IMG/VR virus record: IMGVR_UViG_3300047564_001761
Span: 1 to 55,313 of that record
Reading direction: 5' to 3' (one strand)
From: a virus
Lineage: Duplodnaviria > Caudoviricetes
DNA length: 55,313 nucleotides
The notes under the pieces were generated by a model that worked only from the letters and a program-made list of their open reading frames with translations, ran no database searches and was not told the origin of the DNA. This document shows, piece by piece, positions 3,714 to 19,301 of the stretch (position 1 is its first letter; every line of letters begins with the position of its first letter). A program made the position numbers and the translations under genes.

Positions 3714-3775
3714 GCCGAAAACAGAAGCCCCGTCCAGAACTGGACCTAAATAAAGAGAAACTTAAGGATAAATAA

Positions 3776-4096: not shown

Positions 4097-4098
4097 AG

Positions 4099-4290: not shown

Positions 4291-4324
4291 AAGGCTTATA
4301 GAGCTATCGCTCTGCTTGTGCCAA

Positions 4325-4350
4325 GAGGGGGAATATCCATTCCCCCTTTT
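4325..4350 (+). terminator. intrinsic terminator ending rightward block
   Basis: AGGGGGAAT-ATCC-ATTCCCCCT followed by TTTTT. Confidence 0.75.
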
Positions 4351-4392
4351 TGCCATTTCTAGAGCCAAATAACAGGGTTTTAGAGGCATATC

Positions 4393-4990: not shown

Positions 4991-5047
4991 CTTTTATCAA
5001 ATTTATTCCCCAAATTCCAGTGATTTTTATCATGTTGACGTAATGTC
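4599..5047 (+). repeat. three imperfect ~33-37 bp direct repeats
   Basis: ATTCC(C/A)GTGATTTTT...CGTAATGT at ~4599, ~4892, ~5011. Confidence 0.75.
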
Positions 5048-5120
5048 ATTTATTTGATATGCTGCATTTTATATGCCGCACACAAACCCCAGCTTTGTCA
5101 AGCTGGGATCGTGCGTTATA

Positions 5121-5492
5121 TTATGCGTTTTGCGGGATACGGAATCCTAGTTTATCTAAGAGCTCTTGCCCCAAATGATACTGGCAGAATTCCTCAAATG
5201 AATGCCCGTCGATTTGCTTATTTACCATATCAATTTCTACAGTAAAGTCCCATAGATTTGTATTCTCTGGGTCCACCGCAAATAAACCAAAGCCCGTTTC
5301 TGAATTCCAGTCTTCGTTAATTAATTGGCTTACGATAATACGGGTTGCATAGGATGCATCGTTCCACCGTGGCTTTGCCATCCAGATTGCATGTGCGATT
5401 GATGACTCCCATTCAGTCTCGCCCCAATGTGAATATAGGGCCACTGCCTGAGATGTGCCATCGTTGAATACGTAATTGATACGTGCTCCCAT
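5121..5492 (-). CDS. hypothetical phage protein
   Basis: ORF track; AAGGAG RBS. Confidence 0.8.
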   Translation of the reverse strand: MGARINYVFNDGTSQAVALYSHWGETEWESSIAHAIWMAKPRWNDASYATRIIVSQLINEDWNSETGFGLFAVDPENTNLWDFTVEIDMVNKQIDGHSFEEFCQYHLGQELLDKLGFRIPQNA

Positions 5493-5495
5493 AAT

Positions 5496-5777
5496 TTATT
5501 CTCCTTGTTGTAGTGGGTTTGCCTTGAAGTATTTCTTCAATTCATTGTATGCTCCTACGATGTAGGAAACTGCGCTATCGTTTTTCTTTACTGTGATGTG
5601 TCCAAGTGCTGAGCCAATTGCGTAGGCAGTACCTAAATCATTAGCCTCATGTACAGGCTTGCCCTTATCACCAAGATAAGCAACCATGACCATAACACGA
5701 TAGCAGAGTGTGTTTAATTGTAGTTCGCCATCGGCTTCGTTAGCCCATGCCTGGATTTCGTTACTGATTGTAGTCAT
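5496..5777 (-). CDS. hypothetical protein
   Basis: ORF track; operon coupling. Confidence 0.7.
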   Translation of the reverse strand: MTTISNEIQAWANEADGELQLNTLCYRVMVMVAYLGDKGKPVHEANDLGTAYAIGSALGHITVKKNDSAVSYIVGAYNELKKYFKANPLQQGE

Positions 5778-6114
5778 CTAGATTAACCGCTTTCTCATCG
5801 TATTTGTAATTGGACCATTGTACTACAGGTGGCTCGTAGTTGTCAAGAATATCCTTGCCTGGACCCTCGTCTAGGACTATGGTATCTATCACACTGGCTA
5901 CCTCAACTGTATCGTTGTCTTTATTGTGGTAGTTATAGTATTTGAAATCAACTCCCCAATACTTTATCATTGTTAGAAATAGTTTCATTATTCGCCGCTG
6001 GACATTTGGTGGTTGCTTCATCACGTTCATGGCAAAGTCTGAGTCTTGGAATCTAATATCTGAAATTGAATCTACTAACTTTTCTACCGCCTTCTCTTCA
6101 TCTCTCTTAGCCAT
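5761..6114 (-). CDS. hypothetical protein
   Basis: ORF track; TTGACA...TAGAAT promoter and GGGAG immediately upstream. Confidence 0.75.
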   Translation of the reverse strand: MAKRDEEKAVEKLVDSISDIRFQDSDFAMNVMKQPPNVQRRIMKLFLTMIKYWGVDFKYYNYHNKDNDTVEVASVIDTIVLDEGPGKDILDNYEPPVVQWSNYKYDEKAVNLDDYNQ

Positions 6115-6180
6115 AACTCCCTATTCTACTAAAAATATGTGGGGGTGTCAAGTACCCACCCCCACCGCTATTAAATTATA

Positions 6181-6315
6181 TTACTTAGTGTTTGGTGCTT
6201 CAAAGACCTTACCTTCGGCCTCTGCATTGCGTAGTGCTTCTACCTGAGCACGTGTGAAACGTCCTCGTGCCCCAACTAGAAATCCTAGTTGCTCTAGATA
6301 TTCACGCTTTGTCAT
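6181..6315 (-). CDS. Lsr2-like DNA-binding domain microprotein (44 aa)
   Basis: manual translation MTKREYLEQLGFLVGARGRFTRAQVEAL..., RGR AT-hook-like motif; AAGGAG RBS; own promoter upstream. Confidence 0.65.
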   Translation of the reverse strand: MTKREYLEQLGFLVGARGRFTRAQVEALRNAEAEGKVFEAPNTK

Positions 6316-6394
6316 CCGCATTCTCCTTTTTGTTAGTTTGTGCTAATCCTACCACCATGATAGGAAACCTGTCAAGCTGTCTCATAATTTGAGA

Positions 6395-6784
6395 CTACTC
6401 TTCCTCTTCTCCGTCATACTCTTCGATAATGCCTTCATCAAGCATCCAGTCCCGTACAGCCTCGTACAGGTCCTCTGTCCCGTATTCCAGTGTGAACCCG
6501 TTCTTGTCCGCCTGTGTGAAGAACAGTTCCCACATCTCTTCTTCATCCATAGTTACGTTGTAATCAGGATCTCCGCCTTCACGGATGTCTTTTAAAATAG
6601 TTATTGCTACATCCCAAGTCCATACCCAAACCAGGGGCGGGAATAAACGAAGTTCCCCTATCTTATCAATGATTATATTGATATCACGGAATGTATCCTG
6701 CATGCGTGTTTTTTCCTGTAGATCCATATCAGTCTTCGTACCCATCAAAATACCCCTCTGCCCATAGGCCTTGTAAGAAATCAT
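6395..6784 (-). CDS. acidic hypothetical protein (start may be 6745)
   Basis: ORF track. Confidence 0.7.
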   Translation of the reverse strand: MISYKAYGQRGILMGTKTDMDLQEKTRMQDTFRDINIIIDKIGELRLFPPLVWVWTWDVAITILKDIREGGDPDYNVTMDEEEMWELFFTQADKNGFTLEYGTEDLYEAVRDWMLDEGIIEEYDGEEEE

Positions 6785-7054
6785 GAGCCATAACTAAATA
6801 GTTATGGATAGCAGGATTTTCATCAGCATTGACTAATAAGTCTGCTTGATAAACTCCATATGTCATATCTGCTAGATCCTTCTGTGTATAACCTAGCATT
6901 ATTCATTCCACCAATACTTAACAATTGTGTTTAAAGTAGTATGAATATGGCAGTCACAATCTTCACCGCCCATATTCTCGTGGAATTCTATATGAGAATA
7001 ATTATCCTCGTATATCTCGTTAACTAGTTCTTCGATAGTTCTCATGCCTGCTCC

Positions 7055-7588
7055 TTAGAAGTGGAAATCAACTGGGACGAGGAATTGTAGCATGGCGGTC
7101 TCAGGCTTGTCAAGTCTTTCCCGTAAATATCTCAAATCCGCAGTGTATTCCTTTTTGTCAAAGAAGGCGGAGTCAGGTATCCATTCGCCTGACATTAACT
7201 TACACATAGTATTAATATAGTAATTGTTAAAATCAAATCGGCTGTCGTCAGGTAGTTCTCCACTGTTACTAATATACTCAACAATGTCAGAGGTAAACTT
7301 ATCTAACTTTATCTTAGTTAGATATTGGTTGGCATTCTCAATACGATACTTAACAATACCGTCAATTATCTTATTAAACTCTTCAGGCTTTTCTGCATAT
7401 GAGATAATCATATTGGATGAATCTTCATATTGTGATTCAGACCAGCGACCACCGCCGACAACATGCCAGTCAGACCAATCGCAATTTCTAAATCCTGTTT
7501 CTTCTGACGGCTCTAAGAATGCCTGAACATCTGAGAAGGCCTCTTCCATATCTTGTGCTTCAACCGCAATGTAGTGGAGTGTGTGCAT
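7055..7588 (-). CDS. hypothetical phage protein
   Basis: ORF track; WSDWHVVGGGRW and terminal VDFHF motifs; promoter upstream. Confidence 0.8.
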   Translation of the reverse strand: MHTLHYIAVEAQDMEEAFSDVQAFLEPSEETGFRNCDWSDWHVVGGGRWSESQYEDSSNMIISYAEKPEEFNKIIDGIVKYRIENANQYLTKIKLDKFTSDIVEYISNSGELPDDSRFDFNNYYINTMCKLMSGEWIPDSAFFDKKEYTADLRYLRERLDKPETAMLQFLVPVDFHF

Positions 7589-7624
7589 TTTCCTGTGCTT
7601 TCTATTAGTTTATCGTAATGGGTA

Positions 7625-7680
7625 ATTCTACCATGCGGGACTGACATCTGTCCAGCCCAGCCAGTGTGATTAATATCACA
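7625..7680 (-). promoter_or_regulatory. promoter with perfect CRP-type box
   Basis: minus strand TGTGATATTAATCACA-N10-TGGACA-N18-TAGAAT. Confidence 0.75.
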
Positions 7681-7683
7681 AAG

Positions 7684-7896
7684 CTATGCGAAGATCGACC
7701 AGCCCTGGAAGTCTCCCTCATCCACGACATAGCGCTGAACGGCAGACCAAGCGGACTCCCCGTAGAAATACTTAGGGCGCTTGTTGGGGACGGTAACCTT
7801 GAAGAAACAATTATCTTCGTTGGCCTCGTATACGTCAATTGCTGTGTCCCCGTTATAAATAGGGAACCAGGTTACAGAATTTACTTTAGGTTTCAT
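7684..7896 (-). CDS. hypothetical protein, leaderless
   Basis: TTGACT-N18-TAGAAT-N6-ATG on minus strand. Confidence 0.75.
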   Translation of the reverse strand: MKPKVNSVTWFPIYNGDTAIDVYEANEDNCFFKVTVPNKRPKYFYGESAWSAVQRYVVDEGDFQGWSIFA

Positions 7897-8130
7897 GGCT
7901 GTATTCTACCACCCCGCATAGCCGTGAGTCAAGTTTGATCCCCGTAATGTGATCAAAGTCACAGGGGCCGCACCAGCTTTATAAAAAGCAGAAGGGCCAG
8001 GTCCCCCAACCTGGCCCCTCATGTAGGCATTCCCATATTTAACGACTTGGCGAAGCCTGACAGCCGTACCTACATCATCACCACTTACGTGATACATACT
8101 ATTTTACTTGACTGAAATAAATCTGTCAAG

Positions 8131-8349
8131 TTACTCCCACTTTAGTGTGTATCCCTTTACCCTAATGTTTCTGCCCATGTTAAACTTCTTCACGGCCTCT
8201 GATACAACTGCCTTGTCTTCATATTTAGTTATTGCTATGAAGTTATCAATTGCATCGCTGGCGGTGATACCCGCAAACATAAGATTGTTATTCTTACGAA
8301 TAATCCAAGCCATTAGAACTCCCCGTTCTCTAACATGGTAATAAGCCAT
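8131..8349 (-). CDS. hypothetical protein (start likely 8313)
   Basis: ORF track; GGGGAG before second Met. Confidence 0.6.
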   Translation of the reverse strand: MAYYHVRERGVLMAWIIRKNNNLMFAGITASDAIDNFIAITKYEDKAVVSEAVKKFNMGRNIRVKGYTLKWE

Positions 8350-8469
8350 TCGATTGCTTCTACCAATTCGTCGTCTATTGTTTGTTCTGCTTTTTCTGCC
8401 AATTGTTCTACAAGATCCTCACGAGATTGCTTGTAGCCATCGTGCCAGCCAGATGTGTAGTCTGACATA

Positions 8470-8697
8470 TTACTCCTTTTGATATGGATGATTTGGTTCG
8501 TACTCTGACAAATAAGTTTCTTTTAAACTGTACTTGTCTCTAATACGTGAGACCTTCTCAATGCTACCAGTTCCAATGTTGAATGTCAACGGGGGCATGA
8601 ACTCAGGGTCCAGCCCATTAATCTCAGCCTCCCAATAGGCCCTCTCAAGAGAGAGCCTATCAGGAGCGGTAAGTTCAAAATACATTATGCGTTCCAA
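8470..8697 (-). CDS. hypothetical protein
   Basis: ORF track; operon coupling. Confidence 0.65.
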   Translation of the reverse strand: MERIMYFELTAPDRLSLERAYWEAEINGLDPEFMPPLTFNIGTGSIEKVSRIRDKYSLKETYLSEYEPNHPYQKE

Positions 8698-9371
8698 TCA
8701 ACGTCGTGGTCTTCAACGGACCAGGAATCAACTGAGACGTCACCATGCCATGAATCAATACTTAGATTGTCACTTAAGAAGTAACGGGCATCGAAATCTT
8801 CTACTTCTTCAAGTGGGATATCGTAGTCTACTTCAACCTGAATAGTTGCAGTAATACGCACTGTTTGCTTTGGCTCGTGCCCAAGAATCTCGCAAAGGTC
8901 GTTTAGAACTTCTACCTTCTCATAGTTTGGGTTATACCAACCGTCAGCGTTTAGGTTATCAATAATGCTATTGACCTGTGTCTGAAGATTATTTAATCTA
9001 GTAGTTAACAACTGATTCTCATGAAGTTGATATTCTAAATCAACAGTCTTGATACTTGGGTAAATTGCCTCACCGTTGACGATAGACTTATATGTAATAA
9101 GACTATTAGGATTGTAGGTCTCAGGGACCGTTGGTGTTAGAATTGGTTCGTACTGATTTTCCATTTGATTACTTTCTGCTTGTAGGGACGAAGGCGCTAT
9201 TGTAGCACTTTCGGATGAGATATGCAACATATCTCGCCCACATGGACATGTGAGCTTTACCACACCAGATGGGAATCCAAACCCATCTGATGTAGTTACT
9301 TCGATCATAGTATCACACTCATCTGGGTCACAGATGAATGTGTACTTGCTAGAGATAATGTCAGACATCAT
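8685..9371 (-). CDS. hypothetical protein with N-terminal Zn ribbon
   Basis: CDPDEC...CPCG; ATGA coupling. Confidence 0.75.
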   Translation of the reverse strand: MMSDIISSKYTFICDPDECDTMIEVTTSDGFGFPSGVVKLTCPCGRDMLHISSESATIAPSSLQAESNQMENQYEPILTPTVPETYNPNSLITYKSIVNGEAIYPSIKTVDLEYQLHENQLLTTRLNNLQTQVNSIIDNLNADGWYNPNYEKVEVLNDLCEILGHEPKQTVRITATIQVEVDYDIPLEEVEDFDARYFLSDNLSIDSWHGDVSVDSWSVEDHDVDWNA

Positions 9372-10132
9372 GCATCTACCTTATCTACTAGAGACTTATG
9401 GATTTCGCATTCTGCCATTGCCTCTTCATCTTGCCATGAACCTTCGTTACATTCAGAGCAGAATTCACCGCATTCATTATCGCAGTAAGATAATGTATCA
9501 AAAGATTGGCAGGCGTAGCAACGATTCTCCCATTCTGCTAATTCTTTTACTTCACCACGTAGAATCTCATACTCTCCACCCCAGCCAGTTTCTTCTTCAA
9601 ACTCTAATGTGAGAAGAGAGTTGGGAACTAAGTTAGATAGTTTAGTTAGAACTGTGACGGCAGGAGACCAAGCAGTCTCATACTTATAAACAAGCCAGTT
9701 ATCCTCACCCTCTGACTTGTGTTCAACCAACTCAGTATTAGGATATTCATCCTCATCACGAACTGCTACATCCCACTTGGTTCCCCAGTTAGTATGATTC
9801 CAGTTATACCAATCCTTTTGAGTCTTAGCAAACTCGACGGACTTAGCAAACCAACTAGGGTCTTTCATATCTACACCATCACGAGCAGGCTGGCAGGCAT
9901 ACTCTTCATCAGTAATACCAGCATCCTTATATGAATAGATATTATGAAAAGCAAAGACAGGATTGTTGTATTCAACCTGAGTAATCTTAGTTGGGAATCC
10001 CATAGAACTAATATCACCCATGCCAAACGTTTCCTGCGCTAGTGTAAACGGACGGTTAAGTCTTTCTTTGATAGAATCAATCTCAGACTTAGGACCTTGG
10101 ATTGTTAATGTATTATATACCCAGTTTGGCAT
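9368..10132 (-). CDS. DUF1281/YubB (Api92-like) ferredoxin-like domain protein with Cys-rich tail
   Basis: MPNWVYNTL, WYNWNHTNWGTKWD, ETAWSP motifs. Confidence 0.75.
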   Translation of the reverse strand: MPNWVYNTLTIQGPKSEIDSIKERLNRPFTLAQETFGMGDISSMGFPTKITQVEYNNPVFAFHNIYSYKDAGITDEEYACQPARDGVDMKDPSWFAKSVEFAKTQKDWYNWNHTNWGTKWDVAVRDEDEYPNTELVEHKSEGEDNWLVYKYETAWSPAVTVLTKLSNLVPNSLLTLEFEEETGWGGEYEILRGEVKELAEWENRCYACQSFDTLSYCDNECGEFCSECNEGSWQDEEAMAECEIHKSLVDKVDA

Positions 10133-10165
10133 ATTATTACCTTTCGTAGTAGGAGGGGGCTTATT

Positions 10166-10600
10166 CTACACTGTTGCGACGGCGTTGTCAAGAACCATCT
10201 TGGATTGCCATAGCATACAGTTAGAATCTAAACGGTCACCGAATATACGTATATAATCAGCGATATCTTCTGTTTGATCAGTTAAGCAGGACTTCACGGT
10301 TTCTACTGAAATAAACACACGTCCATTCCATAGACCCATTGCACCTATATTAGTAGGAACTTCTAGGCAACCATATGTATCTTGCTCCCAGCCAACACCT
10401 TCTGAACAAACAAGGGCGTACTTATTATCACCGAAGACATTCTTTTCTTCAAGTGTAATCAGTAATAGATTATCTACTGTGCATTCGCTAAAGTCATTGC
10501 CATATTGTAAGCGATAGATATCATTAGCAATTGTAGCCAGTTTCTTTCCGTCCACAATTTGTCCAACATATCCGTTCATTCGTGATGCTCTGCGGTCCAT
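10166..10600 (-). CDS. hypothetical protein
   Basis: ORF track to 10789, but GAAAGG RBS and promoter support ATG at 10600. Confidence 0.7.
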   Translation of the reverse strand: MDRRASRMNGYVGQIVDGKKLATIANDIYRLQYGNDFSECTVDNLLLITLEEKNVFGDNKYALVCSEGVGWEQDTYGCLEVPTNIGAMGLWNGRVFISVETVKSCLTDQTEDIADYIRIFGDRLDSNCMLWQSKMVLDNAVATV

Positions 10601-10802
10601 ATATTTCCTTTCGATAAGGGTGAATTTTACCATTCTGCAGGGACCCGTGTCAAATCCGTGATGCCCGTAATAGACCCGTAATATGTGATTTTGAGCACAA
10701 ATGGTGCCGCCCCATTTTTTCAGCTTTGTCAAGTGCAACACGATCATGAAATAAAAAAAATACGGGAGCGAATTTCTTCGCCCCCGCATCTTTTATTTTT
10801 TA

Positions 10803-11822
10803 TTATGCGATTTGCATAATTCCCTTAACCACTTTTAGCAAGCGATTTTTTTCTGCGTTGATTTGTGCATCAAATCCTGATGCAGATGCAAGGATAGATT
10901 CGTTAGAACCACCACGAGCAGAGCGGTGCCAGTCAAGGCGTTCAGTAAGTGCATTAAACGCACCCCAAGCAGTTCCAGCAATCATGCCGTTAAACTCGCC
11001 TGTGTAAATATCGTTGAGAGTATCAACTTTATTTGTCCATTTGGTGATTGCGTTCTTTGCTTCACCCTTTGGCTTTGGATAAGCAGCGAGAATGATGTCG
11101 TTGAATTCCTGAGCGGTGACTTCCTTCTCATATAGAGAATTAGCCAACTTTGAGAATTCGTCCATGTATGCATTAGCAAGACCAAGAGTCTCACGTGCAA
11201 CTTGAATTTTTCCTTCTGCTGTTTGTGTGTGGCGAATCTTGAAAGATTGCTTAACGCCACCCTTCTTACGACCAACACCATTAAGTGCAAGGTTTAGAGT
11301 ATTAGCGCACACAACACGAACGGGAGTAATAGATGCCTGAATAGCAATAGACCCGTCATGAGATGTGTTGATGAGCAAATAAGTCTTCACCTTATCTGCT
11401 ACGCCCTGAGCGTCAATAACCGCTTCACGTTCAAGAGCAAGAGAGCCGAATACAACACGCCCTCCACGAATAGAGCCAGCAGTTTCCCAGCGTCCTCCAC
11501 CATCTAGAATGTTATCGCCGAATGAGAATAAATCTTCATTCTGCAATGGTACATAACGCTGACCAACTACGCCGAGAACGTCTGTTTGAGATGCGTCGGT
11601 AGGATTGGTACGCACTACGTACTGATATGATTTATCAGATGAGAGGTGATTTGGAATTTCCAAATCTTCAAGGCGAACGTTCCACCCGTCAAGATTTGCG
11701 AGAGATAGCATTTCGCCAGTAGTTACTTCATTTGTAAATACTGTTCCGAGACCATGCCAAGCAGGTTCTCTGAATGATGCGAATGAGGTTTTGCCATTTT
11801 GATTTTCTAGGTCGTGAGCCAT
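10803..11822 (-). CDS. DUF932 family phage/plasmid-like protein
   Basis: PAWHGLG, ETAGSIRGGR, YLLINTSHDGS, TPVRVVCANTL, IRHT, GTAWGAFNA. Confidence 0.88.
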   Translation of the reverse strand: MAHDLENQNGKTSFASFREPAWHGLGTVFTNEVTTGEMLSLANLDGWNVRLEDLEIPNHLSSDKSYQYVVRTNPTDASQTDVLGVVGQRYVPLQNEDLFSFGDNILDGGGRWETAGSIRGGRVVFGSLALEREAVIDAQGVADKVKTYLLINTSHDGSIAIQASITPVRVVCANTLNLALNGVGRKKGGVKQSFKIRHTQTAEGKIQVARETLGLANAYMDEFSKLANSLYEKEVTAQEFNDIILAAYPKPKGEAKNAITKWTNKVDTLNDIYTGEFNGMIAGTAWGAFNALTERLDWHRSARGGSNESILASASGFDAQINAEKNRLLKVVKGIMQIA

Positions 11823-12276
11823 AGTTTTCCTTTCGATTGTTTGAAGAGCCTATTTTAGCACAACCACCCCAGCGGAGTCAATTCATCTTAGTTAAATGTC
11901 CGAATTATCCTAGTATTTCCCGTGTGTTTAAAATCACACCCGTAAAACTTGACAAGATCAGTTTTTGGGGGCGGCACAGCTCAGGCTATTTGTCAATAGC
12001 CAAAGCGTCTTGCCATTCTGTGTCGTCTATTTTTGGCGTAGGGATAGATAATAAATTAACTATAACAGCAATTGGAAGAATAATAAAATAAATTACCAAC
12101 ACAACTGCAATTAACACGCCAAAGAAAGTGCCCATACCGTAGTAGAAATCCATTGCGTTATCCTATCACATTTTTTAGTCGTTGTACAATTGGCAGGTGA
12201 CACACGCACTCGCACACATAGTAATTATTTTGTTTACAATCATTGCACATATAATCAGATCTACACTGCCAGCCCA

Positions 12277-12999
12277 TTATTTTTTACTCGCAGAGAATCT
12301 AACATCGGCCTTACCATAAACACACAATCCGCATGATACGCAGGCGGACCCATTGCTAGAGATAAGAGGAATTTTCTTTAGGTTCTCAGGACACTTAGCG
12401 CCAGGCTTACCGATTAATTCTTTCATCTTGCTTTCAGTAGCGGCGAAAGTCTTACCTAGATATGCAAGACGAATACCCTCATAGTTAGTGCGTAAGTCTT
12501 CCGCAATTTCTGCATTCTCATCGTCGGTAGAATAGTAAAGAGATAGGTTTTCAATACCCTTAAGCATAATAGCAGCGGACTTTACACGTGTATATACCCA
12601 GAATTGAACATCGGGATGATTAAGAATAACATGCTTCCAGGCGAATGTATAAGTATCGTTAAAGAAATCTCCGTCCCAGTGGATACGGAATAACTTATCT
12701 GCCTTACGCTTATCGCAATCTTTTTTGAAGTCTTCGATCATTTCCATGAGTAGCGCTTCCATAGTATCATGGTCGGCGTCTTTTAATAATTCCCAGTTAT
12801 GTAGAAGAGTAGCCTTTACTCCCTTATAGACTTTTTCCAATTTGCCTGCATAGCAAACAGTCTCGCAGATAGACGTAGCACCAGGACATGAATAGGCTTT
12901 TCCTGCAGGTAATCCGAAGGTGTTGGCAATTGTTGGGGTTTTTCCATTAGGGGAGACGGCATTAGTTACTTTCCTATCATTAGAGCGCTTCAGTTTCAT
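12277..12999 (-). CDS. mycobacteriophage gp88-like protein (Cys-rich, Fe-S candidate)
   Basis: SCPGATSICETVCYA, FRIHWDGDF, WVYTR, C-terminal CP...CVSCGLC. Confidence 0.75.
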   Translation of the reverse strand: MKLKRSNDRKVTNAVSPNGKTPTIANTFGLPAGKAYSCPGATSICETVCYAGKLEKVYKGVKATLLHNWELLKDADHDTMEALLMEMIEDFKKDCDKRKADKLFRIHWDGDFFNDTYTFAWKHVILNHPDVQFWVYTRVKSAAIMLKGIENLSLYYSTDDENAEIAEDLRTNYEGIRLAYLGKTFAATESKMKELIGKPGAKCPENLKKIPLISSNGSACVSCGLCVYGKADVRFSASKK

Positions 13000-13046
13000 T
13001 AGGGGCCTTTCTTAGTGGGGGTGTAATTCTAGCATACTGCAGGGGT

Positions 13047-13181
13047 TTAATCAAGTTTATTAGCGTGTTTCTTTTTCCTAGTATAAACTTTCTTACTAGG
13101 AATAGCGGTAGCGCAATTGCTACGTCGTAGCTCAAGCACACGGCGTAATTCCTCACGGGTTTTCCTAGTTTTAGTAATCAT
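13047..13181 (-). CDS. small basic protein (44 aa), leaderless
   Basis: manual translation MITKTRKTREELRRVLELRRSN...; TATTAT-N6-ATG. Confidence 0.6.
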   Translation of the reverse strand: MITKTRKTREELRRVLELRRSNCATAIPSKKVYTRKKKHANKLD

Positions 13182-13318
13182 GCCGTAATAATAGCAGAAA
13201 TTCCAGCGTTAATCAAATCCTACCCGTAAGTAGCTCTGTGAGATTGATCACAGGTGCCGCAATTTTTTCAAGGGAAATGCCCCGCTAGAAAGAAAGGTAA
13301 CTAACGGGGCAAGATTGT

Positions 13319-13344
13319 GAGCAGTTTTGGCTCTTGCTCAGGAG
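13319..13344 (-). ncRNA. small pseudoknot motif copy
   Basis: CTC-CTGAGCAA-GAG-CC-AAAACTGCTC, just before terminator-like hairpin at ~13277-13311. Confidence 0.55.
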
Positions 13345-13421
13345 GTCTGCGTCTTTAGGTCGGCAGTAACCTTGCTCTATAGTATTTTTATTATCGCCCT
13401 AATCAGCCTGGCGAATATTTT

Positions 13422-13592
13422 TTACTTGCTTGTTTTCACCATTGCAAAACGGCGAGAACCATTAGCGAGAATTAGATTTACACGAGTAACCTTATTGCTA
13501 ATTGGAGAGAAGTTAGCAATACGACCTGTAACACCTGTCTTTGATGTTGTGAAAAGGTCTCCGATTTGATAAGTGTATCCGCCAAGAGTCAT
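13422..13592 (-). CDS. small hypothetical protein (56 aa), paralog of 14162-14308
   Basis: manual translation ...IGDLFTTSKTGVTG...; GAAAGG RBS. Confidence 0.7.
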   Translation of the reverse strand: MTLGGYTYQIGDLFTTSKTGVTGRIANFSPISNKVTRVNLILANGSRRFAMVKTSK

Positions 13593-13623
13593 TTATTTAT
13601 TTCCTTTCAGTAGTGGGTTGGTT

Positions 13624-13650
13624 GAGTAGTTTAGCGACATACTCAGGTCG
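13624..13650 (-). ncRNA. small pseudoknot motif copy
   Basis: CGAC-CTGAGTAT-GTCG-CT-AAACTACTC. Confidence 0.55.
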
Positions 13651-13658
13651 TAGATTAT

Positions 13659-14075
13659 TTAGAGATACTTAGCAATTTGCTTCATGGTTGAAGCATTTAC
13701 TGTTTCCTCATCTGTCATCTTTAGAATTGTGAGAGCATTTGTGATGTCCTCTACAATTTCATTGTATGTGTGCTGGTGCATAATTGTGAAATCACGCTCA
13801 GGCTCTTTAGGGAAATCGGTTTCCTTTACAATCAAATCAAAATCAACATTAAGAGAGTTGTTCCAAGAGCGATAAGATGTGCGGAAGTTTTCAGCCTTCT
13901 TGATGTTTGCAATAGCAAAATCTTGAACTTCCTTACGCCACTTTTCTCTTGACTTCTCATACTTTGCTTCGTTTGCACCCTGCTCAGCATAGTCTTTCTT
14001 GATTGTTGCCAACTTTGTTTCCAAAGCCTTGATTACCTTTGGTGTTGCCACCTTTACTGTGATTGCTCTGCTCAT
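13659..14075 (-). CDS. hypothetical protein
   Basis: ORF track; AGGA RBS; promoter at 14111-14140. Confidence 0.8.
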   Translation of the reverse strand: MSRAITVKVATPKVIKALETKLATIKKDYAEQGANEAKYEKSREKWRKEVQDFAIANIKKAENFRTSYRSWNNSLNVDFDLIVKETDFPKEPERDFTIMHQHTYNEIVEDITNALTILKMTDEETVNASTMKQIAKYL

Positions 14076-14161
14076 GTTATTCCTGTTCTTTTAGTGGGTT
14101 ATTAGGGAGTATTTTAGCAGATGGGCTGAACTATTGTCCAGCCCACCCGCTGTGATTTACA

Positions 14162-14308
14162 TTACTTTGCTGTTGTCCAGCGGTCTTGACCATTGACGGA
14201 TAGTCTGATACGATAAGAGCCATTATCGTTCTTGACTACTTCCTGAACCTCACCTGTTACGCCTGACTTAGCAGTTGTAAAGGTTTCACCGATTTTTGGA
14301 GTTGCCAT
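14162..14308 (-). CDS. small hypothetical protein (48 aa)
   Basis: manual translation MATPKIGETFTTAKSGVTG...; GAAAGG RBS. Confidence 0.7.
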   Translation of the reverse strand: MATPKIGETFTTAKSGVTGEVQEVVKNDNGSYRIRLSVNGQDRWTTAK

Positions 14309-14588
14309 TTGTGCTTCCTTTCTGTTGTTGTTGAGAGAGAATTATAGCAAAACCCACCGACATACACAAATCCAAAATGCTATCAAATCGGACATTTTCC
14401 TGTGATAAAAAACACATTAGCGTAACTTGACTTTCGCCAAAAAATCGGCGGCAAATTCCAGGGATTCCTGTGAGATCTTAGTAATGCATGTAATAGCAAG
14501 TAGTAGCTCTGTGCGGCGCTGTCGGGCGTGTCTAAATTAGTTGAAAGTTAAACCAATTTGATTTAACTTTCAACCTTTTTAGATCGTG

Positions 14589-14879
14589 TTACTTTCCTGA
14601 AACTTTTCCATCTCGCCAAAAGTTTTTAGTCCAAAGTTTTCCATTTGGTTCTGCTAAATTATAAGTTGCGTATTCTTCAGCGTCACCGAAATCAACGCAC
14701 TTATTAAAATCATTTACTGCGTCAAGTGCAAAGTTATAGCGTTGTGTATTTACTAATTCACCATCATAGTAAGTTGTTAGTGCGTAGTCGTATTCCAAAG
14801 TTTCCCCCTTGTTGTAGTTCATAAATGTACCGCCTCTCTCAAACCAGTTTCGTCTTTTTTCTAATTCAGTAATTGTCAC
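14589..14879 (-). CDS. hypothetical protein (start may be 14822)
   Basis: ORF track. Confidence 0.65.
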   Translation of the reverse strand: MTITELEKRRNWFERGGTFMNYNKGETLEYDYALTTYYDGELVNTQRYNFALDAVNDFNKCVDFGDAEEYATYNLAEPNGKLWTKNFWRDGKVSGK

Positions 14880-15043
14880 TACTCATTAACCCAGTCAATG
14901 GTTAGTTCATCAGATAGTTCTGCGATACAATCGCAAGGCTCTACATCATAGTCGTATTCATTTCCAAAGAAAATAAATCCTGCTCCACCGCACTCATCAC
15001 ATGGAGCAGAAACAATCTCGATTAGTTCTTTTACATTAGCCAT
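14879..15043 (-). CDS. small Zn-binding hypothetical protein
   Basis: MANVKEL... with GAAAGG RBS; CDECGGAG...CDC. Confidence 0.65.
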   Translation of the reverse strand: MANVKELIEIVSAPCDECGGAGFIFFGNEYDYDVEPCDCIAELSDELTIDWVNE

Positions 15044-15187
15044 TTTAGTTTTCCTTTCGTGTTGTTGTTGGAATTGTAGCAGATAGCACTGACAATGCCT
15101 CCGCCTTGCTTGCTTCACGTTGAGCAATAACGTGAGCCTTGAATTCATCTAGGTTCATTTAGTTTTCCTTTCGTTAGAAAATTGTGT

Positions 15188-15243
15188 GTGAGTTCTTACT
15201 TACGACATTGGGCGAGAACACTCACGAAACTGCCCCTGTTTCG
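15188..15243 (-). ncRNA. intergenic two-hairpin pseudoknot candidate
   Basis: CGAAAC-AGGGGCA-GTTTCG then GTGAG.GTTCT...AGAACTCAC, with loop GCCC complementary to GGGC. Confidence 0.45.
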
Positions 15244-15250
15244 ATTTTAG

Positions 15251-15454
15251 TTAATCGGAATTCTTAACCGCAACTGTGCGGAAAGTTGTAGAAATACGAT
15301 TAGTAGGCTGTACCTCTACTAGATAGGTATCGCAACCTTCATACCATACCGCTTTAGGGTGTGGCTCGGCGTTGATAATAATTCCTTCAAGGGAATTGGA
15401 GTAATACTGCTTACCTACTAGGAGGTTACGGACAGAGTATACATTTGCTGACAT
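15251..15454 (-). CDS. hypothetical protein
   Basis: MSANVY... with GAAAGG RBS. Confidence 0.7.
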   Translation of the reverse strand: MSANVYSVRNLLVGKQYYSNSLEGIIINAEPHPKAVWYEGCDTYLVEVQPTNRISTTFRTVAVKNSD

Positions 15455-15841
15455 TTTATTTCCTTTCTTTATACCCGCAATTATAGCGGATAGGTCTGAC
15501 AAATTATTAAGTTTTGGGGGGTGTGTCGTTGTGATTTATATCACAACGCACCTTCCTGAAATAAACCTATTTCAAGGTCTAGCAATTCGGACGGGGTGGC
15601 GTCTGATAAATCAACCCAGCCAGCACCCTCTTCATCTATTCTGAATATTTCAATATAACCCATAGTTAGTTATCCTTTCTTTATGTCTGAAATTATAGCA
15701 TGGGGGACTGACAAATTTCTTGTTACCTCTCAGTATTTGAGACAAAATTCCTGTGATAAAAATCACATGATCATAAATTCCTGTGAAAAAGTTATCCACA
15801 GAATAATCCCCAGACACGCCCGACCTCGTGGGGCGGCAAAT

Positions 15842-15857
15842 TCGAACAGATGTTCGA
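15842..15857. promoter_or_regulatory. LexA (SOS) box, actinobacterial consensus
   Basis: TCGAAC-AGAT-GTTCGA. Confidence 0.7.
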
Positions 15858-16423
15858 ACTGCATTTATAATTATGAATTGTTATGCATAATTATTCAAAG
15901 TAGAACGGATCAAATTCTCCATCGAATAATTCAGCGTCAGCTGAATTTTCAAATTCAAATTCATCAGTTTCATTTATTACTTCTGGAGTAGTAAATAATT
16001 CTGAATTATCCTCGTAGTAATTATCCCAATTATATTTGGGCTGTTCCCATGACATTGTGTAACTCATAGATAGTTCTCCTTACATTCTGAACAAACGAAA
16101 TTAATTTTGCAATAGCAGCCAACGGCGGAAAGTAGATTATCATTCTGATAATCGTAGTAATCATCACGATAACTCATTCTGAAACCTCCTCAACATGGAA
16201 AGCGTTAAACTTATCGAGTTCATTCTCGCTAAGTGGGTAGAGTGTTTTATTAAGTGCAAAGATTGCGCTTAGTTCATCTTGTGCCTCTACGACATAAGAT
16301 ATAAGTACATTATATTTACTCATTTATATTCTCCTTTCGAGATAAGTTCATCTAGTTTTAAAACTAGTTCATCTTGAGGTTCATCAAGATAGTTTTTTAA
16401 TTCTGAATTTTTTACGAAGTCTA

Positions 16424-16600
16424 TCATTTAGATACCTTCCAATCTGTCCACATTGGTAGACGCTCAGGGTCGGTATCGTTATACCAACGCTCAATATTGT
16501 TTTCACAAACTTCACAAAATGTGAATTGTGTATCTGCATATTCTGAGATAGCAGGTTTGAATGGTGTGTGCTCTGCACACTTGATAATTGTTGAATTCAT
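16424..16600 (-). CDS. small Cys/His hypothetical protein (58 aa)
   Basis: manual translation MNSTIIKCAEH...CEVCENN...; GAAAGG RBS. Confidence 0.65.
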   Translation of the reverse strand: MNSTIIKCAEHTPFKPAISEYADTQFTFCEVCENNIERWYNDTDPERLPMWTDWKVSK

Positions 16601-17202
16601 TTGAATTCCTTTCTAGTTTGAGAACCTTTCTCAACTTTCTTTATAATGGAATTATAACAGGGGGGTCTGACATTTACTGACTGGTAATGCCACAAATCGG
16701 ACATTTTGAAATGTGATGTAGGTCATGTGGATAACTCACGCTCAAATTTCCGTGTGATTTAAATCACGTGCATAAACCTGTGGAGGACACGCCCGAGTGC
16801 GGGGGCCGCAAAATTTTCGCAGCTTGTCAAGTTAACACGCCGAGAAAATTTTGTTTTTTATTTTTTTTTATAATGTGATCAGAATTCCAAAAGCTAAACA
16901 AAATAAAAAGAAAATAAAAGTCTCTTTCATTTCATGCATGCTTCCCAAAATCTATCGGAATCAAATCTTTCGTTATCTTCCGAAAACATAACGGCGAAAT
17001 CATCCACCAAATCTTCATAAGTAAAACTGTTACCGATTAAATCTTTATAAGTAGAAAGAATCTCGGCGGTCTTTACATAGTCTTTACGTGTCATCATATT
17101 AATTTAGTCCGTTCTCTCGTAGGTCCTTGATTACTGCAATTAGTAGGGGAATGGTAACGCCTGCCAAGATTAATTGGACGGCGGTTGTTAGTAGTCTATT
17201 CA

Positions 17203-17403
17203 TTAGAAATCATCTCCGAACATGTCTAGGATTTCATTTACCTGTTCATCTGTTAGGTGTTCTGTCTCTATAGCCTTAGAGAAACCGAAGACATCTTCTT
17301 CCTCTTCCTCTACAGGGTATTCATCTAAGTAGGTGTAGGCATCTGCTACATCCTCTTGAATTGTGTCCCATTTAGACATTTTACTATTATCGAATGAGTA
17401 CAT
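17203..17403 (-). CDS. highly acidic small protein
   Basis: ORF track; GGAGG RBS. Confidence 0.7.
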   Translation of the reverse strand: MYSFDNSKMSKWDTIQEDVADAYTYLDEYPVEEEEEDVFGFSKAIETEHLTDEQVNEILDMFGDDF

Positions 17404-17653
17404 TACTTAGCCTCCAATTTCTGTACATTAGCGGTAAACTTTACCTTCTTACCTAAGTCGCTAGCATTTAGCGAATTGATTAGGTGGTCAATTTCTTTTG
17501 TATCTGTTGCAACATTGTCAATAGATAGTAGACGAGAGCCTTGCCAAATTGAGTAAGTGATTTTCATTTATTTATTTCCTATTCTTTTAGTTTTATTTAT
17601 TGAGATTATTCTAGGGGATAGACTTAAGAAAGTCAAGTTTATTTAGTGTGTTG

Positions 17654-17869
17654 TTACTCACACTGTCCGCATGGACACTGTGGGAACTCTCGTTCCTGCT
17701 TGATACGATTAGCAAGAGCGATAACCTTGTTATAGGTATCGGCGGAGGCGCCTCTAAAAGAGACCACCTCTCCATTTGCTACCATTTGAGCAGCGAGAGT
17801 AATTCTAGCGTTAAGGTCAAGGTGACCGAACTTAGAGTGGTTAATTTTGTTTTTATCTAGTGTAGTCAT
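17654..17869 (-). CDS. hypothetical protein
   Basis: ORF track; GAGGT RBS; own promoter. Confidence 0.7.
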   Translation of the reverse strand: MTTLDKNKINHSKFGHLDLNARITLAAQMVANGEVVSFRGASADTYNKVIALANRIKQEREFPQCPCGQCE

Positions 17870-17975
17870 TTGGTGACCACCTTTCTTTAGTTTAGTTTAT
17901 TTTTATTTCTATTAAATTGTTATGGCTTAAGCCTAGCAGACCAAAGGCGGAAAGTCAAGCCTATTTAGTGTGAGG

Positions 17976-18152
17976 TTAATCACACTGGCTAGGGGACTTA
18001 GAGTAAGAGTAAGCCATAGCCTCTCTATCGAACCATGCGAACATCTGTTCGGTTTTATGAGACTTGTCTACTTTACAGAACATGTCCCAAGAGTCGCCTG
18101 TCCAATTACAGGACTGGCACTTACTAACTTGATGTGATAAAACTTTTGTCAT
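17976..18152 (-). CDS. small Cys-containing hypothetical protein (58 aa)
   Basis: manual translation MTKVLSHQVSKCQSC...; GAAAGG RBS. Confidence 0.6.
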   Translation of the reverse strand: MTKVLSHQVSKCQSCNWTGDSWDMFCKVDKSHKTEQMFAWFDREAMAYSYSKSPSQCD

Positions 18153-18374
18153 TTTGACCTTTCTAGTTTAGAGACCTTCTCTAACTTTCTAATAGTGTAA
18201 CTATAACACCCCCCACTGACATTTTCAACTTGAAAAACGGGTAAATCGGACATTATTTTTGTGATTTACACCACATGGATCTATGGGCGCACTATTTGTC
18301 CGAATTATACTAAAAAAAGTATGCATCATACAAGAAAAATATATATTCACATTTTTATAAATCTAATATTCTAG

Positions 18375-18404
18375 TTGACTAAAAATATAGGGCGGTGATA
18401 TAAT
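18375..18404 (+). promoter_or_regulatory. SigA-type promoter (extended -10), leaderless
   Basis: TTGACT-N18-TATAAT with TGn, 6 nt to ATG at 18411. Confidence 0.75.
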
Positions 18405-18410
18405 CAGATC

Positions 18411-18488
18411 ATGAGAACAATAATTGCCATAACCATAGTCACTATAATGACCTTTATACTTGGCATATGCTATCAGATATTTTCCTAA
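18411..18488 (+). CDS. 25-aa hydrophobic peptide
   Basis: MRTIIAITIVTIMTFILGICYQIFS directly after promoter. Confidence 0.45.
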   Translation: MRTIIAITIVTIMTFILGICYQIFS

Positions 18489-18495
18489 TCTCTTT

Positions 18496-18570
18496 GGGGA
18501 TATAGCTTAATCTGGTTAAAGCAATTGTCTTATATACAATCGAGTTTGGGTTCAAATCCCAATATCCCTA
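18496..18570 (+). tRNA. tRNA-Ile(TAT)
   Basis: acceptor GGGGATA/TATCCCT-A; anticodon arm ATTGT-CTTATAT-ACAAT; T arm TTGGG-TTCAAAT-CCCAA. Confidence 0.9.
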
Positions 18571-18643
18571 CAAAAAAATTTTATTAACATTTTTGAATAT
18601 CTAATATTCTAGTTGACTAGAATTTATGTGATACAATTATTTT

Positions 18644-19192: not shown

Positions 19193-19301
19193 GATTTATG
19201 TTACTTATCAGTACGATGTTCTTTAGATTTATGATTATTTAATGTGAAGTATGCAAAGGCAGATCGAACTTCGATTTCTTTCTTGCATATCTCACAGATA
19301 A

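Follow-up and report, generated by a model that had tools for sequence, protein, structure and literature searches.

The stretch between 5.1 and 18.3 kb of the window (the whole 55,313-nucleotide stretch of viral DNA that was analysed, IMG/VR record IMGVR_UViG_3300047564_001761) is, as judged from its sequence, most likely a long terminal repeat of an uncultured phage of freshwater Actinobacteria. The best overall explanation, to which we assign a probability of about 0.6, is that a terminal repeat was collapsed on assembly and that its promoters would be set by predicted host regulators. Textbook CRP, DnaA, and LexA sites occur in this block of approximately 40 genes, and the phage may thereby read the condition of its host on entry. 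A first-pass annotation had described the interval as a leftward array of small genes dense in host-regulator boxes and as a probable early region or terminal repeat; the observation itself is confirmed, and the interpretation as a whole is partly supported.

The window is incomplete (46%) and comes from an approximately 115-kb freshwater actinophage that is related to Streptomyces BE-cluster phages (Stanwilliamsviridae), with a portal 60% identical to that of Gilsonvirus phages. All 20 sequencing runs holding this DNA are freshwater metagenomes, spread across 12 studies, and WhiB was found in 4 of 4 complete relatives. The phage would be lytic and siphovirus-type, with a genome of some 115 kb, and would infect freshwater low-GC Actinobacteria.

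The interval appears to be one assembly-collapsed copy of a direct terminal repeat of about 13.9 kb, predicted from sequence at approximately positions 4473 to 18326. The terminal-repeat reading, already proposed in the first-pass annotation, is well supported; it has three independent lines behind it, namely synteny with the BE1 repeat, a conserved right-boundary motif, and roughly doubled contig depth. Gene order follows that of Samisti12, with leftward small genes that include DUF932 and GP88 homologs, then ThyX and a transglycosylase, and then diverging glycosyltransferase and RNR genes; ThyX, a 70-amino-acid (aa) ORF, and the SLT transglycosylase (20037 to 21494, minus strand) would form the unique left arm, arranged as they are beyond the BE1 repeat. 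Among the matches listed, a DUF932 homolog occurs twice per record in 30 of 30 BE phage records. The published repeat is 10,666 bp long in Samisti12 and about 11 kb in BE1 phages (Table 1 of PMC5764925).

The predicted right boundary (18282 to 18333, plus strand) consists of TATGGGCGCACTAT (18282 to 18295) followed by GTATGCAT|CATACA, placing the repeat end near 18326. This 14-mer occurs once in the window, 26 to 31 bp from the right limit drawn in the first-pass annotation; 33 of 80 relatives have it in the corresponding position, with up to two mismatches. In three of the four BE1 records examined it precedes the published repeat end by exactly 33 nt, and CATACA directly follows the cut in every BE1/Comrade case compared. 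Comrade carries the motif with one mismatch, likewise 33 nt before the end of a repeat of 734 bp, so the motif alone gives no repeat length. Similarity is weaker at the left boundary, whose predicted position (a cut at about 4473) is approximate: an AT-rich stretch (4413 to 4480, 19% GC) holds the candidate boundary GGGTAATA|G (4466 to 4474), and BE1/Comrade left boundaries read GTGTAATA|G. The edge carries DnaA boxes and GTAATA|G, as do those of Samisti12 and Warpy, in which DnaA boxes lie 50 to 110 nt before the left repeat boundary (three perfect in Samisti12; two perfect and one with a single mismatch in Warpy).

Doubled coverage had been proposed as a check, and contig k-mer depth is indeed approximately 2 to 3 times higher over about 4.7 to 18.1 kb, the values being sums over mixed-strain contigs. 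Among exact-match Logan contigs, depth in run X3 was 106 (3401 to 4278), 260 to 308 (5809 to 15219), and then 130 and 124 (18178 to 21345), and in run X1 it was 620 to 734 (4783 to 11252) and then 511, 314, and 211; the left step falls between 4279 and 4783. Flanking depths vary as well (118 to 443 in X1; only 27.9 beyond 21.3 kb in X3), and with mixed-strain sums, sharing between strains could therefore mimic a doubling. The two raw-read runs yielded only 4 and 2 reads.

The ORF list holds 43 minus-strand ORFs of 34 to 339 aa between 5121 and 18300, in line with the dozens of short same-strand genes first noticed, though not all are short (the DUF932 protein has 339 aa, and others have 254, 240, and 228 aa). 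The leftward run in fact spans approximately 4.4 to 21.5 kb, its only interruption being a tRNA-Ile on the plus strand and a cupin-like gene (18496 to 19192). These two, a tRNA-Ile(tat) and a cupin/JmjC-like gene, belong to a segment (18364 to 19201) just beyond the predicted repeat and are each bordered by a 28-nt repeat present in three copies. By tblastn (E ≤ 1e-4), 34 of the 43 array ORFs were matched in at least 1 of 80 related loci and 12 in at least 50, and the set of cassettes varies widely; strain variants that lack some cassettes were also seen, with joints at 13417 to 15183 and other places. The conserved core of the array is the DUF932 gene (10803 to 11822, minus strand), 53% identical to gene 2 within the BE1 terminal repeat, and a GP88-family gene (PF17338; 12277 to 12999, minus strand) is 49% identical to Samisti12 gp008, itself within the Samisti12 terminal repeat. 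A 138-aa protein (13659 to 14075, minus strand) is present in 76 of 80 relatives; its confident model has a long helix, a hairpin, and a helix, and neither a helix-turn-helix nor a PDB analog was found for this model. The final array gene (5121 to 5492, minus strand; 123 aa, phrog_31860, function not known) is present in 71 of 80 relatives, and a 46-aa ORF (6181 to 6321, minus strand) resembles Lsr2-like DNA-bridging proteins over their N-terminal 43 positions only (phrog_6269, E = 1.5e-7). The majority of array proteins belong to no known fold or family. The repeat would be a hypervariable block of some 40 small leftward genes, with a presumed role in early host takeover or antidefense; early timing is suggested by the host-type promoters, the small genes of no known function, and analogy with BE1, T5, and SPO1.

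That many of these genes have their own promoter is borne out by an excess of sigma-70-like sites between 4300 and 21600 (76, versus 51.6 ± 7.5 in shuffles), and of those with 10 or more of 12 positions matched, 21 are on the minus strand and 6 on the plus strand. Terminator-like sites are likewise enriched (25 versus 10.2 ± 3.1 over the same interval), and by ORF layout one such hairpin (4327 to 4345) lies where rightward genes (1 to 4290) converge with the leftward array. The cassettes would be driven by host RNA polymerase promoters of two classes. Those of the left half would be canonical TTGACA-N17/18-TAnAAT promoters, represented by a promoter-like TTGACA-18-TATACT (4863 to 4892, minus strand) and by sites at 5817 to 5846, 6123 to 6151, 7084 to 7113, 8101 to 8129, 10163 to 10191, and 10624 to 10653, each with 11 of 12 matches. 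Those of the right half would combine a good, often extended −10 with a weak −35 and carry a conserved TGTCAG near −28. Several motifs left unassigned at first reading are real: TGTCAG-N10-TAnnnT has six perfect copies within 7625 to 18221, every one on the minus strand, AATGTCCGATTT has three, and GACACGCC-type motifs and repeated promoter modules also occur in the array.

CRP-type palindromes are the most abundant of the regulator boxes. The window holds 14 matches to TGTGA-N6-TCACA with at most one mismatch (2.50 ± 1.48 expected; 0 of 100 shuffles reach 14), 13 of them within 7665 to 18275 and 1 beyond 21.5 kb, close to the absence from the right-hand DNA that had been reported. One box reads TGTGATTAATATCACA (7665 to 7680, minus strand), and the others, 16 nt each, are at 7948, 9249, 10684, 11923, 13237, 14151, 14401, 15530, 15752, 16753, 17647, 17969, and 18260. 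Across the 80 relatives, CRP-type boxes total 681 over 1.315 Mb (0.52 per kb), with at least one at every locus, and in the four complete genomes all 25 sites are confined to the array, where a reversed control pattern gave no match in these genomes. Positions outside the selection also track the CRP consensus (T6 0.56, T8 0.59, A9 0.58, and A11 0.65 among 473 distinct sites).

Box centers lie upstream of promoters at about −54, −64, −74, and −85. The spacing of 15 boxes in the window is helically phased (Rayleigh R 0.70 to 0.72 at 10.3 to 10.5 bp; p about 1.5e-4), and of the 196 box-to-core distances that range from −60 to −90 in the relatives, 162 are no more than 1 bp away from −64.5, −74.5, or −84.5, where 30% would be expected. 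These phased distances cover 40 different downstream-gene clusters, and the same downstream gene bears modules of differing spacing in different relatives; exceptions are box 7948, at −59.5, and 13 sites at −69.5 in the relatives. To our knowledge, −53.5 is not among the positions from which CRP classically activates in E. coli.

Perfect DnaA boxes (TTATCCACA) number 7 in the window (0.70 ± 0.82 expected), none of them beyond 21.5 kb. Two lie within the interval (15792 and 16726), as described, but the main cluster lies outside it, at the left edge of the repeat (4393, 4404, 4946, 4970, and 4982). The perfect pair at 4393 to 4412 (minus strand; the plus strand reads TGTGGATAActTGTGGATAA) sits just outside the predicted left boundary, and four boxes 12 bp apart (4946 to 4990; three perfect, one with a single mismatch) are arranged with two facing two within a noncoding terminal control region (4486 to 5047) that also holds three copies of ATATGAGAC, four of CGTAATGT, and a 37-nt repeat; three ORFs there are not conserved among relatives. 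With these boxes next to it in pairs and in a group of four, the AT-rich, iteron-bearing, noncoding end of the repeat is probably the replication origin. DnaA boxes are carried by 75 of 80 relatives, and 29 of 36 in the four complete genomes are in the array. The reported LexA motif stands for the Gram-positive/actinobacterial type, CGAAC-N4-GTTCG, with two perfect copies (15843 and 18038; 0.01 expected), but not for the E. coli type, CTGT-N8-ACAG, which has no occurrence; LexA boxes are sporadic among relatives (10 of 80). The second copy (18038 to 18051) is inside a 58-aa ORF, 54 nt upstream of the CRP box at 17969 to 17984.

Some promoter modules also contain a single DnaA box, and a minority contain an actinobacterial SOS box. 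The spacer at 15664 to 15898 (minus strand) combines a promoter-like TTGAAT-17-CATAAT (15870 to 15898), the SOS box TCGAACATCTGTTCGA (15842 to 15857), GACACGCCC, a DnaA box (15792 to 15800), a CRP box (15752 to 15767), and a TGTCAG-N10-TATAAT core (15692 to 15713). A second (16651 to 16768, minus strand) has a CRP box (16753 to 16768), a DnaA box (16726 to 16734), AATGTCCGATTT (16694 to 16705), and a TGTCAG core promoter (16651 to 16672), and the first module within the repeat (18200 to 18275, minus strand) has a CRP box (18260 to 18275), AATGTCCGATTT (18243 to 18254), and TGTCAG-N10-TATAGT (18200 to 18221).

At least 13 promoters have a CRP/GlxR-type palindrome, TGTGAT-N-TA-N-ATCACA, upstream of them, centered near −54, −64, −74, −85, or −116 and hence on one helix face, the geometry of an upstream activator touching RNA polymerase; we propose that a host cAMP-receptor-family protein, present already at entry, may set promoter output. 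At the level of sequence the boxes are supported as candidate host-regulator sites: three canonical consensus types are present, kept in relatives (LexA sporadically), and no phage-encoded CRP, DnaA, or LexA homolog was found, none of the domains HTH_Crp_2, cNMP_binding, Bac_DnaA_C, LexA_DNA_bind, and Sigma70_r2 occurring in any of the four complete relatives. The palindromes could instead be bound by a phage-encoded protein, as its operators or activator sites; this might be an immediate-early product of the left-half canonical promoters that switches on TGTCAG-type delayed-early promoters, with likeness to CRP by convergence. We consider this rather unlikely: most box-bearing promoters have no −35 and look activator dependent, array proteins are for the most part without known fold or family, and the BE1 repeat's own palindrome in comparable places would fit lineage-specific phage regulators, but the lack of the regulator domains in the four complete relatives, a best-conserved protein of no known function that lacks a helix-turn-helix, the sharing of spacers by three canonical host consensus types, and the agreement of nonselected positions with the CRP consensus all argue against it. 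Improbable, in our judgment, is a sponge, in which replicating phage DNA titrates host CRP, DnaA, and LexA, blocking host replication initiation and deranging regulons. Site density is very high (11 array sites within one mismatch of the 12-position CRP consensus, versus 7 across an entire Aquiluna MAG of 1.9 Mb), and all sites, the seven perfect DnaA boxes included, would be present twice over were the block a terminal repeat; a sponge, however, does not need a fixed, helically phased promoter distance, and there is one box per promoter, with no tight arrays except the DnaA cluster. Phased distances thus favor transcriptional control over a pure decoy, and of the two mechanisms first offered, reading of host state fits better.

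A genome without a long repeat is an unlikely alternative, whether circularly permuted or with a short repeat ending near 18326; the array would then be a unique hypervariable island, with its higher depth contributed by several co-occurring strains that share it. Comrade's short repeat with the same boundary motif, uneven depth together with cassette-deletion variants, and relatives' contig ends that show no clustering at the predicted boundaries would suit such a genome, yet the depth excess covers just the interval between two BE1-like boundary features in two samples, gene content is that of the BE1 repeat rather than Comrade's, and the left edge resembles that of BE1. It is very improbable that the repeated spacer modules serve mainly for recombination and the shuffling of cassettes, like T4-type promoter/stem-loop repeats, with no regulatory role of their own. 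Differing module spacings before one downstream gene, the variable cassette content, and the 28-nt repeat bordering plus-strand cassettes are compatible with shuffling. Such shuffling, however, more probably follows from the repetition of promoters, and it leaves three exact host-regulator consensus types and spacing quantized by 10 bp unexplained.

Our preferred reading, a terminal repeat under host-regulator control, has its closest counterpart in the BE1 phages (Samistivirus, PMC5764925, which also quotes the sizes of the T5 left terminal repeat and the SPO1 terminal redundancy). Both have a leftward small-gene array (20 to 25 genes in BE1) in which each gene has its own spacer, with DUF932, GP88, and Lsr2-like homologs, the same genes beyond it, an identical motif 33 nt before the right repeat end, and DnaA boxes before the left boundary. 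The present phage differs in its GC content (39 to 40%, against 50%), its freshwater, uncultured origin, a repeat predicted at about 13.9 kb, and spacers bearing CRP-type, DnaA, and SOS boxes; within the Samisti12 repeat none of the CRP, DnaA, or LexA boxes was found, and a palindrome TGTC-N7-GACA occurs there instead in seven copies. The T5 repeat holds pre-early genes and the SPO1 terminal redundancy a host-takeover module, and the likeness lies in a long terminal repeat crowded with small genes and many strong host-polymerase promoters, early timing here being inferred and no sequence relationship expected; we know of no use of CRP, DnaA, or LexA sites in either. Class I CRP/GlxR promoters carry TGTGA-N6-TCACA, in E. 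coli at −61.5, −72.5, −82.5, and −92.5; the boxes here share the 16-bp palindrome, the preferred bases (including T6, central TA, and A11), and upstream positions one helical turn apart, with a register shifted by approximately 2 to 3 bp from that of E. coli and an additional class at −53.5. DnaA-box clusters are known from oriC, from plasmid and phage origins such as P1 oriR, and from the titration locus datA, and here too perfect boxes are paired 11 to 12 bp apart beside a 19%-GC stretch and iteron-like repeats, although this cluster lies at a phage terminal-repeat junction and further single boxes lie inside promoter modules. The stoperators of cluster A mycobacteriophages are likewise many copies of one short motif, protein-binding in their case, across actinophage intergenic spacers; they are asymmetric, oriented with transcription, genome-wide, and bound by the phage's own repressor, whereas the motif described here, for which no repressor is evident, is a palindrome placed upstream of promoters and limited to one block.

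The interval at 5121-18300 carries 43 open reading frames (ORFs) on the minus strand, 34 of which are matched in at least one relative, and the dense leftward same-strand gene array described in the first-pass annotation holds. It forms part of a longer leftward block (minus strand, about 4.4-21.5 kb) that lies between rightward genes at 1-4290 (plus strand; including three tRNAs, GroES, and a manA RNA) and, from 21,493, plus-strand genes for a glycosyltransferase, a class II RNR, approximately 27 kb of tail-fibre-like and sugar-modifying functions, and the portal. The many promoters ascribed to the array are also borne out: 76 sigma-70-like sites were identified at 4300-21600 versus 51.6 ± 7.5 in shuffles, and the sites with at least 10 of 12 positions matched comprise 21 minus-strand and 6 plus-strand entries. 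CRP-type boxes (TGTGA-N6-TCACA, at most one mismatch) exceed the shuffle expectation as claimed (14 versus 2.5 ± 1.5), with 13 of the 14 in 7665-18275. Perfect DnaA boxes (TTATCCACA) are in excess as well (7 versus 0.70 ± 0.82 expected), but two of them fall inside the interval to which they had been assigned and five lie just to its left (4393-4990). The proposed LexA motifs survive in a different form, as the E. coli-type LexA box has no match in the window but the Gram-positive/actinobacterial SOS box, CGAAC-N4-GTTCG, is present in two perfect copies (0.01 expected), one at 15842-15857 (TCGAACATCTGTTCGA), just downstream of a 9/12 promoter-like site, and the other within an ORF. The unassigned motifs are likewise present: three perfect, array-confined copies of AATGTCCGATTT, six perfect copies of a TGTCAG-N10-TAnnnT core promoter, all on the minus strand in the array, and repeated GACACGCC-type elements. 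Across the window as a whole, neither AATGTCCGATTT at up to two mismatches (11 versus 6.5) nor the core promoter at up to one mismatch (23 versus 20.3) is enriched.

These boxes are a lineage-wide feature. Among 80 related IMG/VR loci we counted 681 CRP-type boxes in 1.315 Mb (0.52 per kb, approximately 10 times the shuffle expectation of the window), with at least one in every locus, and perfect DnaA boxes were present in 75. Relative to the start of the array gene DUF932, the CRP boxes occupy the stretch between -9 and +3 kb, and the DnaA boxes are concentrated at +4 to +7 kb, -1 kb, and -5 to -8 kb. Each of the 25 strict CRP-type sites in four complete genomes of the lineage falls in the array, as do 29 of the 36 DnaA boxes, and a reversed control pattern gave no CRP-type match in these genomes. 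SOS boxes are restricted to 10 of the 80 loci (11 boxes), where they lie within a conserved module. The CRP consensus was used as a yardstick for the 473 distinct CRP-type sites, together with the Rex operator, TTGTGAA-N4-TTCACAA; a Rex-type site is excluded because the non-selected positions follow the CRP consensus (T6 0.56, T8 0.59, A9 0.58, A11 0.65), while the A6 and T11 that Rex needs were each observed at 0.04. In searches of the literature at the level of main texts, neither these boxes nor the repeat-boundary motif discussed below had been described.

The position of the boxes relative to the promoters is strongly constrained. Measured from predicted, unmapped transcription starts, the centres of 15 window boxes lie at -53.5/-54.5 (three), -59.5 (one), -63.5/-64.5 (three), -74.5/-75.5 (five), and -85.5, -89.5, and -116.5 (one each); the box at 17969, placed at -89.5 by the script, joins the -53.5/-54.5 class (then four) if assigned by hand to TTGACT-17-TAGGCT. 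Phasing of the window boxes gave a Rayleigh R of 0.70 to 0.72 at 10.3 to 10.5 bp (p ~1.5e-4), and in the relatives 162 of the 196 distances between -60 and -90 are within 1 bp of -64.5, -74.5, or -84.5 (30% expected). The phased distances cover 40 downstream-sequence clusters, and single gene clusters show more than one spacing class. An alignment upstream of DUF932 has the module order DnaA box(es), TTGTCAAG, GACACGCC, CRP box, AAATGTCCGATTT, -35, TGTCAG, -10. Judged on sequence, this geometry is that of an upstream activator on one helix face and is unlike that of a promoter-overlapping operator or a free-standing decoy. The spacers had been proposed either to read the state of the host or to act as a decoy for several transcription factors; the fixed, phased spacing to promoters favors the former, whereas free-standing decoy geometry was not seen.

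Host Crp/GlxR, DnaA, and LexA are the most economical candidate binders, because CRP-type HTH, cNMP-binding, DnaA C-terminal, LexA DNA-binding, and sigma-70 region 2 domains are absent from the four complete relatives and the window and because three canonical host consensus sequences co-occur in the same spacers; we consider binding by these host proteins to be slightly better than an even bet. Binding by a lineage-specific phage regulator is a serious rival, and it stays so because the repeat of the Streptomyces cluster BE1 phages, although comparable in layout, contains another palindrome and none of these boxes. In the Samisti12 repeat (750-9161), seven copies of TGTC-N7-GACA are found between terminator and promoter. 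The missing regulator domains argue against such a phage protein and for the host regulators, which we retain as the preferred reading.

Two phage proteins were considered as regulators and set aside. The annotated "DNA binding protein" of BE phages is ferritin/Dps-like, with weak matches in three of the four complete relatives. Among the array proteins of unknown function, the most conserved (138 aa; 13659-14075, minus strand) is modeled with a pLDDT of 87.9 as a hairpin between two helices, the first of 50 residues, a predicted fold that lacks a helix-turn-helix and has no structural match in PDB at E ≤ 0.001. PDB sequence searches with the DUF932, GP88, 254-aa, and 138-aa proteins returned no matches, Rfam had none within the array, and searches of 41 small ORFs against Pfam and PHROGs yielded an Lsr2-like match, two unnamed PHROGs, three marginal Pfam matches, and nothing else. 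The Lsr2-like similarity of a 46-aa ORF (6181-6321, minus strand) is confined to the N-terminal (oligomerisation) part, and one may speculate that a protein reduced to this domain would disturb the function of host Lsr2. Cassette-level microdiversity is also present inside the array: in Logan contigs from the probable source sample, co-occurring variants skip or replace 13417-15183, 13416-13619, 16125-16324, and 8589-8663, at depths of 174.5, 24.2, 88.3, and 8.2, respectively.

The block is probably a long terminal repeat, as had been suspected, a view that draws support from synteny with BE1 phages, a right-boundary 14-mer, and left-edge features, although the contig depths are less clear. 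Measured BE1 repeats span 10.7 to 11.5 kb and contain 20 to 25 ORFs, an lsr2-like gene among them (PMC5764925). The Samisti12 repeat, like the array in the window, is leftward and includes homologues of DUF932 (53% identity) and GP88 (49%), and beyond it come ThyX, a transglycosylase, a diverging glycosyltransferase, and RNR, in an order identical to that in the window. Outside the repeat, identity is 62% for ThyX, 44% for the glycosyltransferase, and 66% for RNR; the transglycosylase has no tblastn match and shares a Pfam family alone. All 30 of the listed BE phage records carry two copies of the DUF932 homologue. The 14-mer TATGGGCGCACTAT occurs once in the window, at 18282-18295. Samisti12, Warpy, and NootNoot have an identical copy, and Comrade one with a single mismatch, each exactly 33 nt short of the published end of the repeat, which puts the predicted right end in the window at approximately 18326; CATACA directly follows the cut in all four phages. 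With up to two mismatches, the 14-mer is found at the matching place in 33 of the 80 relatives, and it was not found in the stretch of Jay2Jay examined (10,500-11,000). Comrade has the same right-end signal with a repeat of just 734 bp, so the length of the repeat in the window rests on left-end features, depth, and gene content.

At the left boundary, GTGTAATA/G (the slash marking the boundary), Samisti12 has three perfect DnaA boxes, and Warpy has two perfect boxes and one with a single mismatch, 50 to 110 nt before it; in the window, two DnaA boxes at 4393-4412 precede the candidate left boundary, GGGTAATA/G, at 4466-4474. The region at 4413-5120 is non-coding in the relatives and, in the window, has iteron-like repeats and four DnaA boxes. 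The DnaA boxes at this left end form the pair at 4393-4412 and a quartet at 4946-4990, with helical spacing, and GC content falls to 19% at 4413-4480; this left end of the repeat, 4413-5120, is a probable replication origin. In two metagenome runs with exact-match Logan contigs (X3 and X1), k-mer depth over approximately 4.7-18.1 kb is ~2.1 to 2.4x (X3) and ~3x (X1), values that are sums over mixed strains with uneven flanks. Contig depths from left to right are 106, 260-308, 130, and 124 in X3 and 620-734, 511, 314, and 211 in X1, with one step falling within 4279-4783 and the other close to 18.2 kb. Two raw-read runs placed four (X21) and two (X22) reads on the window. The relatives are circular or collapsed assemblies, whose contig ends show no clustering at the boundaries predicted here, and the "DTR" flag on one relative proved to be a 123-bp overlap.

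Several features outside the repeat merit description. A manA RNA motif (Rfam, 63.9 bits, above gathering) lies at 1191-1377 (plus strand) among tRNA genes at 954-1500, of which tRNA-Trp (1116-1184) was called by ARAGORN and is missing from the Rfam matches. Toward the end of this right arm are GroES (Cpn10, E 2e-15; 2927-3223, plus strand) and a fragment-like ORF product of 106 aa (3776-4096, plus strand) that matches the nicotinamide mononucleotide transporter family. Just beyond the predicted right end of the repeat, three copies of a 28-nt repeat (TAATATTCTAGTTGACTA...) at 18364-19201 flank two plus-strand units, tRNA-Ile(tat) and a cupin/JmjC-like gene, that look like inserted mini-cassettes with their own promoter. 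Compared with Comrade and Samisti12, the window has approximately 27 kb of extra sequence (24.6-51.8 kb) between RNR and a 562-aa gene preceding the portal; the products of this insert include two large proteins (1222 and 1165 aa), tail-fibre-like proteins with GC-rich repeats at 39-41 kb, and three enzymes (a 2OG-Fe(II) oxygenase, a sugar epimerase, and a carbamoyltransferase), and 21-nt tandem repeats lie at 44112-44199. The 562-aa protein (51761-53449, plus strand) occupies the position expected of a large terminase directly before the portal, lacks a PHROG match, and has 22% identity to its Comrade counterpart.

The 55,313-bp window is the entire record and was rated 46% complete by CheckV; its right end truncates the portal gene, which has 60% identity to those of Streptomyces BE-cluster phages (Stanwilliamsviridae). 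No close phage was recovered at the DNA level: none of 50,697 phage records matched the interval by megablast. IMG/VR contains 465 related stretches, and in the 80 analyzed the DUF932 protein identity is 80 to 84%; the four complete relatives are 112 to 119 kb, and all encode WhiB. Near-identical DNA was found in 20 runs, all of them freshwater metagenomes, from 12 studies. The inferred source is a lytic phage infecting low-GC Actinobacteria of fresh water. An RNR scan of 185,579 genomes for the host recovered only phage-like contigs binned in assorted MAGs, and in an Aquiluna MAG that contains related phage contigs the HTH_Crp_2 match is sub-threshold (24.3 bits versus a cut-off of 27). The isolated Planktophila phages have 39-kb genomes and belong to a different family (PMC10202952).

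These observations lead us to a wider proposal that we advance tentatively, with a probability of roughly 0.3: that in an abundant freshwater actinophage lineage the promoters of a first-expressed repeat are wired to Crp/GlxR, DnaA, and LexA, that the repeat also drains these regulators, and that both the DnaA-box origin at the junction of the repeat and the 14-mer, as a cutting signal, descend from an ancestor shared with the Streptomyces BE phages. cAMP-Crp/GlxR, whose binding is predicted, would act as a phased class-I-type activator alongside DnaA and LexA (the sign of regulation is presumptive, as are the early timing and the functions of the array genes), and early gene output would follow the energy and replication states of the host and its DNA damage at the moment of entry. 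The repeat, present twice per genome in this reading, has more consensus CRP sites than a whole small actinobacterial genome, and its replication would also pull CRP, DnaA, and LexA off the host chromosome.

The sequence yields precise predictions, namely, both repeat ends within a few bases, approximately 15 promoter modules, three candidate host proteins, and a spacing rule that should break on a 5-bp insertion. The lineage is widespread and probably infects dominant, hard-to-grow freshwater Actinobacteria, and if these are the true host, the wiring bears on how infection success in lakes depends on host physiology. To our knowledge, little has been established on how the many promoters in repeats of this kind are controlled, and few lytic phages place their early promoters directly under global regulators of the host. 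The conserved boundary signal also makes it feasible to call terminal repeats in this phage family with the sequence as the sole input. Long terminal repeats filled with early genes are found in T5, SPO1, and BE1 phages, and the BE1 repeat and the window have a CGGACA/AAATCGGACATT element in common.
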